This document shows positions 22,347-32,781 of a stretch of 64,000 nt of DNA, piece after piece. The notes below the pieces were generated by a model. That model was given only the letters and a program-made list of their open reading frames with translations. It was not told the origin of the DNA and searched no databases. The DNA is from Candidatus Pacearchaeota archaeon (GTDB lineage Archaea; Nanobdellota; Nanobdellia; Pacearchaeales; GW2011-AR1). The position numbers and the translations under genes are program-made. The DNA lies in NCBI GenBank assembly GCA_016186365.1, contig JACPLT010000006.1, positions 12,049 through 76,048 on the forward strand, given 5' to 3'. Positions within the stretch are counted from its first letter, which is position 1, and every line of letters starts with the position of its first letter.

Positions 22347-22353
22347 TAATGTA

Positions 22354-27038: not shown

Positions 27039-27590
27039 TTAAGGTTTTGTCCAGGAAACTTCGTAATAGGTTACATCGCTCTCTTCATCAACTATTCCTA
27101 TAAGAAGGTTTTTCTTTGTCGAGTGAGCTACTCTATTTTTAGCTGAAAAATCGTGCCAGGTTAGGGTTTCTGATTCTTTTACAGGATAAATAATCCATTT
27201 TGCATGGTCTTCTCCCGGCTTTATTCCTTTGTCATAAACCCTGAACTCTGCTCCAAATTTTAGAGCGGTTTTTACAATATAACCTTTGTCTCTTAAATCT
27301 TTAAAAACTCTGTACTTGGTTTCTATTTTAGGGTCCTCTTTTTTCAGCTCTTCTATAAGTCTTTGGAAGCTTAACTTTTTCTTTTTTGAGGTTATCTCTA
27401 TTTTTTCCCTTTCTAATAAATAGAGAGCTTCTGCAAAGGAGTAAAATATTTTGCCCTCTTTTGCCTCTCCAAATCGTGACTGTTCATATAGCGAGAATGC
27501 TTCTTTCTTATTGCTGTAAACTATCTCTCCTGAAAAAACTGCTTTTATTGCGGATTTTTTTGGAGTTTTTTCTTTTGTTTTTTTAACCAT
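27039..27590 (-). CDS. endA: tRNA-splicing endonuclease (homotetramer-type size)
   Basis: LRDKGYIVKTALKFGAEFRVYDKG...HAKWIIYPV catalytic-domain pattern. 183 aa. Confidence 0.85.
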   Translation of the reverse strand: MVKKTKEKTPKKSAIKAVFSGEIVYSNKKEAFSLYEQSRFGEAKEGKIFYSFAEALYLLEREKIEITSKKKKLSFQRLIEELKKEDPKIETKYRVFKDLRDKGYIVKTALKFGAEFRVYDKGIKPGEDHAKWIIYPVKESETLTWHDFSAKNRVAHSTKKNLLIGIVDEESDVTYYEVSWTKP

Positions 27591-27622
27591 GTTTTAGTAA
27601 GTAAAAAATGATATATAAATGT

Positions 27623-28888
27623 TTATTCTTCTAATCTTTGATTAATCTCTCCGGAGAGATTTTCCTGCATCTTTTCTTTTATCTGGCTTTTCCAGTTTTT
27701 ATGCCCTAAAACATATCCGAGCTTGACATAAGCGGTTTCTGGGAGAGTGTCTTCCAGGAAAATAATTCCTGATTTCATCAGCTTTCTTCCTGGAGAGTAA
27801 ACATAGGGATTGACTCTTCCGTATAAGGTTTGGCTTGTAATACAGACAATAAGTCCGTTGTCAATCGCTTTTTTTATAGCTGGAAGAAGATTTTTTCTTG
27901 CTTCGTCTATTGCGAGGTGCCCTAATCCTGAAGCTTCAATTACAATCCCTTCATATTTTTGAGAGAGATAATCAAATATTTCAGGATTCATTCCTGGATA
28001 GAACTTTACAAGAGCTATTTTTTCATTAAAATTGGAATCTAGCTTAACTTTTTTGTTGTTATCCCTTTTGTTGTAAGAAGTTAGGGGTTCTATTCTGTCG
28101 GGATAAATTTTTGCGATTGGCATGGAATTAACTGGCTTGAAGGCGTCTCTTCTTGAGGAGTGCATTTTTCTTACTTTGTTTCCTTTTAATGCAAAACAAA
28201 AGTTGTCATTAGTTGAGCTGTGCCCTACTAACATCACTTCTGCTATTTCAGATATCGCGGCTCTTGCTGCGCATTGAAGATTTAAAGAAGCATCAGAACT
28301 TGCTCTATCAGAACTTCTTTGAGAATAGGTAAGAACAACCGGCTTGTTTATATCTTTTAGAAAAAAAGAGAGCGCGGCAGAGGTATAGTGAAGAAAGTCT
28401 GTTCCGTGTGTGATTATCACTCCTGAAATTTCGCTGTCATTCAGACTTTTTTCTGTTTCTTTTGCAATTTCCTGCCAGTCTTTTGCGTCCATATTTTCTG
28501 AAGCTTTCATAAAGGGGATTATTATTTTTCTTATGTTGACTATGTCAAACAATTCTGGGTAAAACTTGAAAAAATCATCGGCTGATGTCAGCCATGAAAC
28601 CCCTCCTGTTTTTGAATCTAATCTTGAAGAAATTGTTCCCCCTGTCATGATGATATCAATCTTAGGCAGGTTTTTATCTGGCTTAATCTCTCTTGCTTTT
28701 TTTTCAGGAGCAGGCTTTTTCTTTTCAATCTGCGCAATATTAATAATGTCTTCTTTTTTTATTCCAATATTATACCCTGATTTTAGCTTAATAAGAATAA
28801 TTTCTGGCTGATAGCTCTCTAATAAAGTTCCTTCTATTGTTTCTTTAGCAGTAGTTATTTTTATTTTATCCCCTGTTTCTGGTTCCAT
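27623..28888 (-). CDS. gatD: Glu-tRNA(Gln) amidotransferase subunit D
   Basis: Asparaginase-type motifs IIMTGGTISS and VIITHGTDFLHYT, with the N-terminal GatD extension. Confidence 0.9.
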   Translation of the reverse strand: MEPETGDKIKITTAKETIEGTLLESYQPEIILIKLKSGYNIGIKKEDIINIAQIEKKKPAPEKKAREIKPDKNLPKIDIIMTGGTISSRLDSKTGGVSWLTSADDFFKFYPELFDIVNIRKIIIPFMKASENMDAKDWQEIAKETEKSLNDSEISGVIITHGTDFLHYTSAALSFFLKDINKPVVLTYSQRSSDRASSDASLNLQCAARAAISEIAEVMLVGHSSTNDNFCFALKGNKVRKMHSSRRDAFKPVNSMPIAKIYPDRIEPLTSYNKRDNNKKVKLDSNFNEKIALVKFYPGMNPEIFDYLSQKYEGIVIEASGLGHLAIDEARKNLLPAIKKAIDNGLIVCITSQTLYGRVNPYVYSPGRKLMKSGIIFLEDTLPETAYVKLGYVLGHKNWKSQIKEKMQENLSGEINQRLEE

Positions 28889-28996
28889 AAATAGTGAAGA
28901 ATGAGATGATATAAAAAGTTATTTATTTGCTGAATAATTTTACATTTATATGCCCTTTTCTAAAGATTTAAAAGAGCTAAAGATATATGCTAATTT

Positions 28997-29335
28997 ATGC
29001 CAGTCCAGCAAATTGAGATAGAAAAGTTACAGCCTACAGATAATCTTAGAGTTGAGAGTTTTTCTTATCTTGTTCAACTGGCAGATGAAGAGCTGGATAA
29101 AATAGATGAAAAAGAGGGGCATCCTCAAGCGTGGCTTGTCGATGGAAAGATAATTATATCTGATGGAAATCAAAGAACAGCTGCGAGAGCTATGAAAGGA
29201 AAGAGAGTTGTTAATGTGGATTATCAGGGAGAGCTTCCCAGTTATTTGGCAGGTTTTGCAGAAGAGGTTTTAATAAGAAAAACAAGATTGCAGAAAAATG
29301 GAGTATATTCTTTTTTTGACTTGCTTGAATCCTAA
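28997..29335 (+). CDS. ParB/sulfiredoxin-fold (ParB N-terminal-like) domain protein
   Basis: IEIEKLQPTDN... and IIISDGNQRTAARAMKG resemble the ParB-N DGHHR/GxxRxxA core. Only 112 aa. Confidence 0.45.
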   Translation: MPVQQIEIEKLQPTDNLRVESFSYLVQLADEELDKIDEKEGHPQAWLVDGKIIISDGNQRTAARAMKGKRVVNVDYQGELPSYLAGFAEEVLIRKTRLQKNGVYSFFDLLES

Positions 29336-29404
29336 GTTATAAAAATAAAAAAATAAAGAAATTACCTTTGAGGTTTATTTTTGTTATTTGGGTTATTTAG
29401 AAAA

Positions 29405-31252
29405 TTATTCTTGTTTTTCTTCCCAGATACGAGCAGTTTTCATATCACAGAGTAATTTCGCTCCTTTTTTTCTCTTGTCTCCAATCCTCAAGACTCCTGG
29501 AATTATAGAAATCCAGCCGCTAAATTCTGGATTGTCAGGCCAGTATTCTTCAGGACGATACAGCATGAAGGCGGCATCTGCAACTTCAGGAATTCCTTTG
29601 CAATCAGAGAAATCTTCTATACCTCGAGGTTTTTTATTTTTTCTTTTTAATACTTCAAGTTTTAGCTGGGCATTCACTAAGACATCCACCCCCAAAGTTT
29701 CTGCAACATCCCTTTTTAATCTTTTTAATACTTCATAATAAATATCCGATTTATTTCCCTGATAAGGCACATATCCTGCAAAAGATTGCAACCCATCTAC
29801 AACTACTAAGTGTAAGTTAGGATTCATAACCTTTAATTCGTGGCTTCTGGCAACAATATACTCAATATCAGGTTTATTGGAATCAAATTCTATCTGAAGT
29901 TTTTTAACTTCTTCTGAAGCTAATTTTATTCTTTCTATTTCTTCTTGAGAGAGATTCCCACTTTCTACATCCCAATATCTGAATCTTTCAGTATCAATTC
30001 CTGCTCTTTTTGCTATCAACTTTTCAACTAACTCGCTAATAGAAGATTCATATGTAAAAAATAAACTGGATTTTCCCTGTGCTGACAATTTGTCTGCAAT
30101 ATTTAATACAAGAGTGGTCTTTCCCTGTTTAGTTGAGGCTCCGCACATTATTAATCGGTGACCCCTTACTCCATGAGTAATTCTATCTACTCCGTGGTAG
30201 CCTGTAGAAATATCTGGCTTGCCTTTTCTTTCAACTAATTTGTCAAAATCATCTATAACTGCTTCAACGCCTGAAGCAGCATCTCGCGATTTCTGAAATC
30301 TAAATGGAATTAATCTGGCTAACTCCATAGCTTTAACTCTTATCCATTCAGTCATAGATTGGTTTGGCGAGGGAACTTTTTCATCTGGGTTTCTTTCGTA
30401 TGCCGCATCTCTACAGAGAGTTTTTGAATATACTATAATTTCTCTTCTTAGAAAACAGTTTTCTACCTGCCTAAAATATTCTGACACATTTTCTGGTTTA
30501 CCGGAGTTTTTAGCTTCTTGAACTAATTCTTGTAAATAAAATCTCCCCCCCACTTTCTCAAGCACCCCCTTTGCAGCAAGCCAGTCTTGTAAAGTAGTCA
30601 AATCGAGTTTGCTTCCTAATGCAATTATTCCATTGCAGATGTCTTGATGAGCAATTTTGTACAGTGCTAGATAAAGGTATTTTAAATTAACTTCTTTTCT
30701 TGCTTCAGGGTGATTAATTAAAGTTCCTAATAAAACCATCTCAGCTGAGGGATTATGGGGCGGGACTACATCATAATAAGGACCTTCTTTAGAGTCGCGC
30801 CTAACCCCTGTCCCTCTAGCCATTTCTCTGAAATTATCTTCCAGATCTTTTTCTTCTAATCTCCCCAATAATTCGCGATTTTCTGCCATTAATAAAGCAT
30901 AAGCCTGCCGTGCGTCTTTCATAGTTTTTCTTAACTCTGCAACCCGCGCTTTTGCATAATCCAAATTATTTTGCAACATTTTTTCGGCATCAGGAATGTA
31001 TCCTTCTGTATTTTTTGTTTCTTCTAAAAGAATTCCAAAATCTTCGCCACTTTTGTCTGTATCCCATGTATTAGGATTCCAACTCTCAATTCTTTTCCCA
31101 TTGTATTCATGAGCTCTTTCAGAACTAACAAAAGTATTCACAAACATTTCTAAATCTTCAGCCGATGGATTATAATAAAAAGGCTGTCTTTCTGCCGTTT
31201 CTATTTCTTCTTTTGTTAATTCTTCCCGTTTTTTTAGTATTCTTTCTGTCAT
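29405..31252 (-). CDS. DnaB-family (bacterial/phage-type) replicative helicase with ~170-aa N-terminal extension
   Basis: DnaB-N-like PPHNPSAEMVLLGTLINHPEA...GGRFYLQELV. RecA-like core with Walker A CGASTKQGKTTLVLNIA and Walker B LHLVVVDGLQ. ATG 31252 is preferred to TTG 31276. Confidence 0.8.
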   Translation of the reverse strand: MTERILKKREELTKEEIETAERQPFYYNPSAEDLEMFVNTFVSSERAHEYNGKRIESWNPNTWDTDKSGEDFGILLEETKNTEGYIPDAEKMLQNNLDYAKARVAELRKTMKDARQAYALLMAENRELLGRLEEKDLEDNFREMARGTGVRRDSKEGPYYDVVPPHNPSAEMVLLGTLINHPEARKEVNLKYLYLALYKIAHQDICNGIIALGSKLDLTTLQDWLAAKGVLEKVGGRFYLQELVQEAKNSGKPENVSEYFRQVENCFLRREIIVYSKTLCRDAAYERNPDEKVPSPNQSMTEWIRVKAMELARLIPFRFQKSRDAASGVEAVIDDFDKLVERKGKPDISTGYHGVDRITHGVRGHRLIMCGASTKQGKTTLVLNIADKLSAQGKSSLFFTYESSISELVEKLIAKRAGIDTERFRYWDVESGNLSQEEIERIKLASEEVKKLQIEFDSNKPDIEYIVARSHELKVMNPNLHLVVVDGLQSFAGYVPYQGNKSDIYYEVLKRLKRDVAETLGVDVLVNAQLKLEVLKRKNKKPRGIEDFSDCKGIPEVADAAFMLYRPEEYWPDNPEFSGWISIIPGVLRIGDKRKKGAKLLCDMKTARIWEEKQE

Positions 31253-31386
31253 GCTAATTTTCTTGAGAACTCTCAAGGCGAATTTACCACCTCTAATCTC
31301 TTGGGTTCTTTGTGTTTATAAAAATATGTGCGTTCTATTTCGCATAAAACCTCAAAGAATAAAAACCCCAAATTCTAACTATAATT

Positions 31387-32781
31387 ATGCAGGAAATAAA
31401 AGTAGGATTAGAGATACACGGATATCTGAATACAAAAGAGAAGCTGTTTTGCCGATGCAAAGCAGTGAGGCATAGCTTAAAAAAAGAGATAAAGGAAAAC
31501 AGCTTTGTCTGCCCGATATGCACTGGACAGCCAGGAAGCAAGCCAATGCTCCCTAATTCTTCAGCTATAGCCAGAGTAGTCGAAATTGCTTTAATGCTCA
31601 ATTCTGAAGTTAATCTTTATGATTCTGGAAAAGAGTTAGTATGGAACAGAAAACATTACAGCTGGCCTGACTTGCCTAAGGGCTATCAAAATACAATTTC
31701 AGGGGCTTATTCTGTTCCAGTGGCTGAAAAAGGGAAATTTGAAGGAATCAAGATAAGAGAGATTCATTTAGAGGAAGACCCTGCTCAATGGAATCCTGAA
31801 ACTGGAGGTATAGATTATAACAGGAGCGGACTTCCTTTAGTTGAAATTGTTACTGAGCCAGATTTTGATTCTCCTGATAAAGTTGTTGACTGGCTTAAAA
31901 AATTAGTTTTAACTCTGTCATATATTAAAGCAGTTGATAAAAATGCAGGGATCAAAGTAGATGTGAATATCTCAACTAAAAAAACAGATTTTAAAGAAAG
32001 AGTAGAAATAAAGAATCTTAGCAGTCTTGAAAATATAAGAAAAGCAATTGAATTTGAAGCTAAAAGACAGGAAACTGAAAAGACAGGAAAAGAGACGAGA
32101 AGATATGATGAAAAAAATGAAAGGACAATAAAAATGAGAGATAAGGAGGGGGCAGAAGATTACAGATTTATTCCTGACCCTGATTTGCCTATTATCAAGA
32201 TTAGAAAGAGTGAAATTGAAAAACTAAAAAAAGCGCTTCCTGAATCTCCGCAGGAAAAACTTGATAAATTAATTAAAAAACATAAAATTGGAGAAAAAGA
32301 TGCGTCAGTTTTATCACAAAATATTGAAGTTGTTGAATTTTTTGAGAAAGTTATTGAAAAAGTTAATCCCAGATTTGCACTTCCATGGGTTAATGTTGAA
32401 CTGATGCGAGTTCTTAACTGGAACAAGAAAACTCTTGATGAAGTAGAAATAATGCCTGAACATTTTATTGAATTATTGCAGTTAGTGGAAAGCAAAAAAC
32501 TTACTGAACTTAAAGCAAAAAGCATACTAAATGAGTTTATTCCAAAATCTTTTTCTGTAAAAGAAAGAATGAAGGAATTTGGAAAAATTGCAGATATGGG
32601 GGAGATAGAGAAAATCTGCGGGGATGTTGTTAAAAATAATGTTCAAGCTGTTCAGGATTATCTCTCTGGAAAAGAAGAATCTCTTAACTTTTTAATTGGA
32701 GAGGTTATGAAAAAGAGCAATAGAAGAGCAGATTATAAAACTGCTAAAGAAATACTCAAAAAAATAATAAATAATAAATAA
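31387..32781 (+). CDS. gatB: Asp/Glu-tRNA amidotransferase subunit B
   Basis: GLEIHGYLNT, CPICTGQPGSKPMLN, DYNRSGLPLVEIVTEPD, plus a C-terminal YqeY-like tail. Confidence 0.85.
   Translation: MQEIKVGLEIHGYLNTKEKLFCRCKAVRHSLKKEIKENSFVCPICTGQPGSKPMLPNSSAIARVVEIALMLNSEVNLYDSGKELVWNRKHYSWPDLPKGYQNTISGAYSVPVAEKGKFEGIKIREIHLEEDPAQWNPETGGIDYNRSGLPLVEIVTEPDFDSPDKVVDWLKKLVLTLSYIKAVDKNAGIKVDVNISTKKTDFKERVEIKNLSSLENIRKAIEFEAKRQETEKTGKETRRYDEKNERTIKMRDKEGAEDYRFIPDPDLPIIKIRKSEIEKLKKALPESPQEKLDKLIKKHKIGEKDASVLSQNIEVVEFFEKVIEKVNPRFALPWVNVELMRVLNWNKKTLDEVEIMPEHFIELLQLVESKKLTELKAKSILNEFIPKSFSVKERMKEFGKIADMGEIEKICGDVVKNNVQAVQDYLSGKEESLNFLIGEVMKKSNRRADYKTAKEILKKIINNK

Follow-up and report, generated by a model that had tools for sequence, protein, structure and literature searches.

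Textbooks and a global survey (PMC4889955) divide replication in cellular organisms between a bacterial type that uses DnaB-type helicases of superfamily 4 (SF4) and an archaeo-eukaryotic type that uses MCM-type helicases of superfamily 6 (SF6); SF4 helicases are described as scarcely occurring outside bacteria and their phages. Bacterial DnaB (from E. coli; DnaB/DnaC of Geobacillus, with structures 4ESV, 2R6A and 2VYE; family TIGR00665) is universal in bacteria and consists of a collar domain (PF00772), a linker helix and a RecA-type motor (PF03796) whose ATPase residues include an arginine finger, R420 of the GkDnaC/Bst helicase, in a later beta-hairpin (PMC12214026, PMC3236778). The DnaB-like helicases of phages and plasmids (TIGR03600; PHROG 19; P1 Ban; SPP1 G40P, structure 3BGW) have the same domains, are accessory and move horizontally. 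RadA/RadB and KaiC-like ATPases of archaea have a RecA-type P-loop core and give weak matches to PF03796 in archaeal control genomes, but lack the DnaB N-terminal domain and linker. A gene for a DnaB-family helicase is located between gatD and gatB in a 64,000-nucleotide stretch (the window) of contig JACPLT010000006.1 (81 kb), part of a Candidatus Pacearchaeota genome (0.97 Mb, 33% guanine plus cytosine (GC), 82% complete) that was assembled from groundwater metagenomes and encodes both MCM and Orc1/Cdc6. The best explanation of the evidence, with a probability of about 0.65, is that this gene encodes a functional, stand-alone DnaB (SF4) ring helicase of a DPANN-only subfamily, horizontally inserted and accessory to MCM.

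The open reading frame (ORF) encodes 615 amino acids from the ATG at position 31252, or 623 amino acids (29405..31276 on the minus strand) from an in-frame TTG at 31276 upstream of that ATG; residues are numbered here in the 615-residue frame unless the 623-residue frame is stated. It is a full-length DnaB-family helicase with collar, linker, motor and all ATPase residues present. The Pfam DnaB N-terminal domain matches residues 172-272 (623-residue frame; E 9.8e-11, 42.1 bits against a cut-off of 23) over positions 2-102 of the 103 in the profile, and DnaB_C matches residues 356-579 (623-residue frame; E 3.1e-30, 105.8 bits against a cut-off of 27). The DnaB N-terminal-like domain and the RecA-type core with its two Walker motifs are as described in an earlier annotation of the window (the original prediction). 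The best PHROG match is PHROG 19 (DnaB-like replicative helicase; E 1e-37), and the best NCBIfam matches are TIGR03600 phage_DnaB (162.9 bits) and TIGR00665 DnaB (158.6 bits). The models for RadA and KaiC reach no more than 25 and 19 bits, versus 159-163 bits for the DnaB models; therefore, the KaiC/RadA-like identity that had been named as the competing assignment does not apply. Two weak PF03796 matches elsewhere in the source genome come from RecA-superfamily ATPases. A search of Protein Data Bank (PDB) sequences placed the DnaB proteins of Geobacillus, Vibrio and E. coli as the closest solved relatives, at about 100 bits. An AlphaFold2 model built from ten members of the clade described below is confident for the collar (residues 165-285) and the motor (residues 350-611), and has low-confidence loops in the linker with helices at 300-314 and 325-341. 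All of its top 50 Foldseek matches are DnaB structures, with a template modelling (TM) score of 0.81 on chain F of 4ESV (E 3.6e-28, about 457 columns).

Catalytic columns were located by aligning 40 clade members with 115 other DnaB proteins. The motor contains Walker A GASTKQGKTT (Lys378), the catalytic Glu402, Walker B LVVVDG (Asp486) with Gln489, the sensor Gln529, a clade-specific loop DFSDCKG (Cys551, Lys552) and the arginine finger Arg589, which was placed through alignment to R420 of the GkDnaC/Bst helicase. Among the 40 clade members, the P-loop lysine and the Walker B aspartate are invariant (40/40 each), the catalytic glutamate is kept in 34, the two glutamines in 39 and 38, and the arginine finger is arginine in 38 and lysine in 2. 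The replacement of SDLRESG by DFSDCKG was considered as a loss of the arginine finger and rejected, the finger being in the later beta-hairpin and kept as Arg589. This replacement, in the central loop, is one of three motifs that mark the clade, along with DGLQ for DYLQ at Walker B (H2) and AQLK for SQLNR in H3. At two columns of the loop, 35 of 40 clade members have Cys and 30 of 40 have Lys, versus Ser in 108 and Gly in 111 of the 115 other DnaB proteins. The position is that of the loop reported to contact single-stranded DNA in work on 4ESV.

The archaeal protein is only 24-28% identical to bacterial DnaB and differs from it further by an extra N-terminal extension of 160 residues. The original prediction had described an unassigned N-terminal region with a coiled-coil-like stretch, which agrees with the model: residues 19-87 are of low confidence or disordered, a single long helix of about 58 residues follows (87-145), and a disordered link (140-160) leads to the collar. 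Extensions of 70-220 residues are present in nearly all clade members, and that of the congeneric pair G409/G443 evolves with a ratio of nonsynonymous to synonymous substitution rates (dN/dS) of 0.13. The acidic disordered segment bears the motif FYYNPSAEDLE (residues 23-36); the corresponding acidic-aromatic pattern, P-[ST..]-x-[DE][DE]-[LM..]-[DEA], recurs across different subclades, in 6 of the 34 extensions, compared to 0.5 expected from shuffled sequences, and may be a docking peptide. The extension and the rebuilt loop of the DNA channel are clear biochemical targets.

A HMMER scan of 1.84 billion cluster representatives found 41 sequences at E < 1e-30, mostly of 540-690 residues, beneath which there was a flat plateau of ordinary DnaB proteins of about 450 residues (100-120 bits, 27-31% identity). 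In a maximum-likelihood tree, made as the original prediction had proposed, the long forms cluster with a Shimodaira-Hasegawa-like approximate likelihood ratio (SH-aLRT) of 98, and together with short archaeal sister forms they are split, with support of 96, from DnaB of E. coli, Bacillus and a cyanophage, P1 Ban and Aaphi23 P. All named members of the clade are Woesearchaeota, Pacearchaeota or Nanoarchaeia. The helicase is thus part of a distinct clade that comprises about 40 sequence clusters, is known so far from DPANN archaea alone and is about 27% identical to the DnaB proteins of bacteria, phages and plasmids. No account of this clade turned up in searches of the literature on DnaB in DPANN archaea, Woesearchaeota or Nanoarchaeota, and it is apparently a rare and undescribed archaeal branch of the DnaB family. 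Comparison of the 82%-identical pair G409/G443 gave a dN/dS of 0.09 for the gene overall and 0.07 for its core, a ratio from which the gene is taken to be functional and under purifying selection.

Carriers of the gene make up about 2% of related genomes: 5 were found among 301 genomes sampled from the same family and 10 among 400 genomes of high quality from the phylum. G013 and G022, the two relatives closest to the source genome (GatD 70% identical), lack the gene. The observation that it is wedged between gatD and gatB stands, as these genes are divergent neighbours 142 nucleotides apart in G011, and in G021 they are interrupted solely by one small membrane ORF. This adjacency argues that the helicase gene was inserted at this locus, into a slot that is empty elsewhere. 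No variant without the insert was found among the contigs of four groundwater runs; one joint in these contigs that seemed to skip the gene was taken as spurious, since one side of it was only 20 letters long. Within one genus, four carriers have helicases of three lineages that are 37-41% identical, and the copy in G450 is more similar to a helicase of another family (48% identical) than to those of its congeners (37-40%), although G450 and G443 have flanking genes in common at 67-71% identity. The presence in one neighbourhood of helicases that are 37% identical points to replacement or exchange between DPANN genomes, that is, to horizontal turnover, with ancient paralogy and differential loss as a possible alternative. 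Across loci, a comparison of the identity of neighbouring proteins with that of the helicases was too noisy to tell vertical from horizontal descent.

The GC content of the helicase gene is 0.362 (85th percentile), that of the adjacent 112-residue ORF (orf112) is 0.372 and that of gatD is 0.357, compared to a mean of 0.331 +/- 0.031 per gene. The impression that the first two genes are less AT-rich than their flanks was therefore not significant, with gatD itself at 0.357 and the helicase gene in mid-distribution for GC at third codon positions (GC3, 39th percentile) and for codon-usage likelihood (33rd percentile of 685 genes). The original prediction had named native composition together with conservation at the locus as signs of a vertically inherited host gene; the composition is indeed like that of the flanking genes, but relatives do not keep the gene at this locus. 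There is no integrase or transposase ORF within 6 kb of the helicase gene on either side, only chance AT-rich matches were found in a search for att-like flanking repeats at 28700-31600, and no tRNA gene is adjacent as a target (the nearest are at 22353 and 35873), in accordance with the earlier failure to see an integrase, tRNA target or flanking direct repeats. Searches of 50,697 phage records (INPHARED) and 72,556 plasmid records (PLSDB) at the protein level, and a scan of 2.9 million IMG/VR contigs with a clade-specific pattern, found no close relative; the best matches in these three collections are only 24-28% identical. The best matches from phages and plasmids (27-28% identical) never cover the N-terminal extension, the named phage sequences are on the bacterial side of the tree, and clade members are never beside phage or plasmid genes. 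About 20 clade members were seen in context, all as single genes amid chromosomal housekeeping genes (including those of PheRS, RNA polymerase, Kae1, NAC, Sec61-beta, Rpb7/Spt4 and ribosomal proteins) and none on a viral contig, and a Pfam tally of 111 neighbouring proteins contained no recurrent integrase or transposase. Members of the clade apparently pass from genome to genome singly, and not as the remnant of a virus or plasmid.

MCM is kept in the source genome and in all 12 helicase carriers that were tested. The search for MCM and Cdc6 that had been proposed as a check found both in the source genome, from which it is inferred that the helicase is accessory and not the main replicative helicase. 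This patchy occurrence in a host with MCM and Orc1/Cdc6 contrasts with the universality of DnaB in bacteria. Archaeal control genomes lack the core of bacterial-type DnaG primase (PF08275), which is present in 16 of 400 genomes of the phylum; its frequency there is higher among carriers (3 of 10) than among non-carriers (13 of 390; Fisher p = 0.005, without correction for phylogeny). Among 12 carriers other than the source genome, four or five have it. Two gene contexts suggest DNA replication or repair. At L039:8001-17460 (JGI Ga0373630_0000596), a short archaeal DnaB-like gene, a sister form of the clade (491 residues), is located between the genes for TATA-binding protein and an intein-containing MCM on one side and an ATP-dependent DNA ligase on the other, followed about 5 kb on by a bacterial-type DnaG (zinc ribbon, DNAG_N and Toprim; 605 residues) and a 505-residue gene resembling PolB exonuclease/RNase H. 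At L032:1049-10703 (genome G271), the helicase gene is inside a cluster for deoxynucleoside triphosphate (dNTP) supply, in the order NrdR-like, ribonucleotide reductase, corrinoid adenosyltransferase, dCMP-deaminase-like, DnaB-like, thymidylate kinase, ThyX-like and thioredoxin, these genes having been assigned by eye except for Pfam tallies for ribonucleotide reductase, CobA and thioredoxin. In replication or repair, the protein would most likely act as an accessory ring helicase of 5'-3' polarity.

In the proposed mechanism, a single helicase gene would have been inserted between orf112/gatD and gatB in the source lineage, either long ago or from another low-GC DPANN genome, because its composition is native. 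By homology to DnaB, the protein would form a two-tier hexamer that binds ATP between subunits, with Lys378, Glu402 and Asp486 contributed by one subunit and Arg589 by the next, and the ring would move 5'-3' along single-stranded DNA. The extension of 70-220 residues is probably an arm for docking to archaeal partners or for oligomerisation. The protein would serve as a second helicase in, for example, fork restart or lagging-strand work, and in some carriers it may pair with the bacterial-type DnaG primase. A bolder proposal, that some DPANN archaea have a hybrid machinery for replication or restart in which a ring of the DnaB type, docked by its acidic and coiled-coil N-terminal arm, acts beside MCM/Orc1, in some lineages with DnaG, for instance where the lagging strand is made or where forks stall, is speculative and unlikely; if true, it would make them the first cellular lineage with both kinds of replicative helicase. 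An intact DnaB homologue beside MCM, with a statistical link to DnaG, is a testable case of the two systems mixing in one cell, and is also an example of a core replication-type gene that passes, naked and on its own, from one ultra-small archaeon to another.

The original prediction offered two origins for the gene, a remnant or cargo of a mobile replicon or a domesticated helicase, of which the latter fits and the former found no support in integrase, repeats, tRNA target, compositional anomaly or viral and plasmid relatives. Were the gene all that survives of a virus or plasmid that had integrated, or its cargo, with a past or present role in replicating that element rather than the host, this would agree with the near confinement of SF4 helicases to bacteria and phages (PMC4889955), with the insertion relative to G011 and G021, with a patchy distribution and a phylogeny at odds with taxonomy, and with the ParE toxins and DNA methylase encoded near some clade members. 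Such an origin is nevertheless distinctly unlikely, given an insert of one gene with none of the marks of integration, its native GC3 and codon usage, its strong purifying selection, about 20 independent contexts that are all chromosomal with no recurrent hallmark of mobile elements, the lack of close relatives in the viral, phage and plasmid collections and of an empty-site variant in the four samples. An ancestral gene of DPANN archaea, inherited vertically, lost in most lineages and shuffled in fast-rearranging genomes, would account for a monophyletic, DPANN-only clade of native composition, for its presence in several congeners, partly in a common neighbourhood, and for loci that differ, since synteny is poor in these genomes and even gatD-gatE is broken here. 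Presence in about 2% of genomes (10 of 400 of high quality) would, however, require very many independent losses; the two closest relatives are without the gene, its slot is empty in G011, and the G450 copy is nearer to that of another family than to those of its congeners. Vertical descent is, on balance, unlikely.

Some observations weigh against the preferred reading of a horizontally acquired helicase accessory to MCM. Its scores are far below the equivalog cut-offs of NCBIfam (158.6 versus 385.25 bits for TIGR00665 and 162.9 versus 498.65 bits for TIGR03600), and its DNA-contact loop is unlike that of every characterised DnaB, so that its substrate or polarity could differ. No PF08275 match was found in the source genome, which is only 82% complete, and DnaG, the classical partner for a DnaB N-terminal domain, is missing from most other carriers too. 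When 293 neighbouring ORFs, taken from 22 loci, were clustered all against all, no conserved partner or operon that might reveal a pathway was found, nor any conserved neighbour that might be a dedicated loader (DnaC/DnaI, DciA, lambda P), no search aimed at a loader having been made; a search for sequencing runs found no RNA runs, only DNA runs from groundwater metagenomes. The patchiness and in-genus divergence would also fit a gene engaged in genetic conflict, that is, in defence against DPANN viruses, as a decoy or as a virus-derived exclusion factor, instead of housekeeping. The sporadic distribution of the helicase, its deep divergence between congeners in one neighbourhood, the variability of its N-terminal extension and a gatD-gatB slot that holds different small genes in different relatives all have a place in such a conflict, but no effector or partner gene is found among the neighbours, the PADLOC search gave no significant match (the best, at E 2e-4, was mads_8, matched along 80 residues in the P-loop region), a dN/dS of 0.09 is not that of diversifying selection, and some members are in clusters for replication or dNTP synthesis. 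A conflict function is therefore considered very unlikely.

The region at 27.6-32.8 kb of the window holds four genes, gatD, orf112, the helicase ORF and gatB, the features of which are listed below.

Features of the gatD-gatB region and domains of the encoded helicase, in window coordinates
Feature	Position	Strand	Basis
gatD (Glu-tRNA(Gln) amidotransferase subunit D)	27623..28888	-	NCBIfam PRK04183, 481 bits, above cut-off
orf112, 112-residue ParB-N/sulfiredoxin-fold protein, motif ISDGNQR	28997..29335	+	Homologues, AlphaFold2, Foldseek
Convergent spacer, 69 nucleotides, A/T runs giving oligo-T on both strands	29336..29404	.	Direct sequence reading; inverted AT-rich repeats I10 and I22
DnaB-like helicase gene, 615 residues from ATG 31252	29405..31252	-	ORF list, Pfam, NCBIfam, PHROG, fold match
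Helicase motor domain, RecA-type, residues 350-615	29408..30205	-	PF03796; motif columns in 40 clade members and 115 other DnaB proteins
Helicase linker region including linker helix, residues 286-349	30206..30397	-	Model; alignment to Geobacillus DnaB
Helicase DnaB N-terminal (collar) domain, residues 163-285	30398..30766	-	PF00772; confident helical model; alignment to DnaB N-terminal domains in PDB
Helicase N-terminal extension, residues 1-162	30767..31252	-	AlphaFold2 confidence and secondary structure; clade comparison
Divergent intergenic region common to helicase gene and gatB	31253..31386	.	Direct sequence reading
gatB (amidotransferase subunit B)	31387..32781	+	NCBIfam GatB equivalog, 419 bits, above cut-off

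The ParB-N/sulfiredoxin-like call for orf112 stood at the level of fold and not at that of sequence profiles. No match to Pfam or NCBIfam at E <= 0.01, to PHROG or to PADLOC was found, and a profile search against PDB sequences returned nothing relevant. The AlphaFold2 model of orf112 has a mean predicted local distance difference test (pLDDT) score of 89.9, and all of its top 50 Foldseek matches have the ParB-N/Srx fold, including Noc, ParB, Atu1540, sulfiredoxin, SbnI and SerK (best E 1.5e-4, TM 0.45-0.55). Membership in the ParB-N/sulfiredoxin superfamily holds for the predicted model at fold level only. The DGN-x-R motif of orf112 is at the position of the nucleotide-binding GxxR/DGHHR box of the superfamily; orf112 differs from other members as a single domain without a DNA-binding helix-turn-helix or a dimerisation domain. 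Its three homologues are 29-49% identical, with ISDGN invariant. One of them, at L116:1-1238 (JGI Ga0172375_10229255), keeps the divergent pair of gatD and orf112 (GatD 61% and orf112 49% identical), followed by an unrelated ORF for 105 residues of Lys/Glu-rich coiled coil; evidently, a variety of small genes can occupy the place next to gatD. The homologues in G088 and G103 are located elsewhere, not beside gatD. None of the three has a DnaB-like neighbour, and the distribution of orf112 is unrelated to that of the helicase. It is a neighbour of gatD in its own right, neither paired with the helicase nor half of a two-gene cargo, as the joint interpretation of these genes in the original prediction would have had it.

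The convergent spacer likely provides transcription stops for both the helicase gene and orf112, a terminator role suggested by its oligo-T runs. The divergent intergenic region contains the TATA-like TTTATAAAAATA at 31316-31327 and is the putative promoter region of the helicase gene and gatB. The summed depth of Logan contigs rises two- to four-fold at 29170-29386 and 29604-29820, and loose contig ends are numerous at 29289-29348 and 29629-29651, where other contigs share short pieces of sequence; these spikes of depth could be due to AT-rich low complexity or a small repeat.

The sole recurrent neighbour found for the helicase gene is a gene of about 96 residues that encodes a DUF357 protein, which adjoins it in genus g225 (L093:4530-4820, L094:8279-8532, L095:5604-5924 and L102:9532-9822) and is 8 kb away in G034. 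Among the other loci, L033 (G063:C5:16000-30000) is a stretch of 48% GC that encodes a DnaB of 444 residues, which falls outside the archaeal clade, along with integrase, ParB-like nuclease and terminase; the relatives of this bin have 25-34% GC, and the stretch is probably a foreign or contaminant phage-like contig. On a DPANN-type contig (L038:4310-7452, PPCM01000810.1), tandem DnaB-like genes for 447 and 597 residues are located beside form-III RuBisCO. The genes around the source locus are archaeal housekeeping genes, such as those of ribosomal protein S17e and tRNA-splicing endonuclease. The latter follows gatD in the window (27039-28888), whereas gatE follows gatD in 10 of 12 relatives; gatE is about 32 kb from gatD in the same window, at about 61047-62477.

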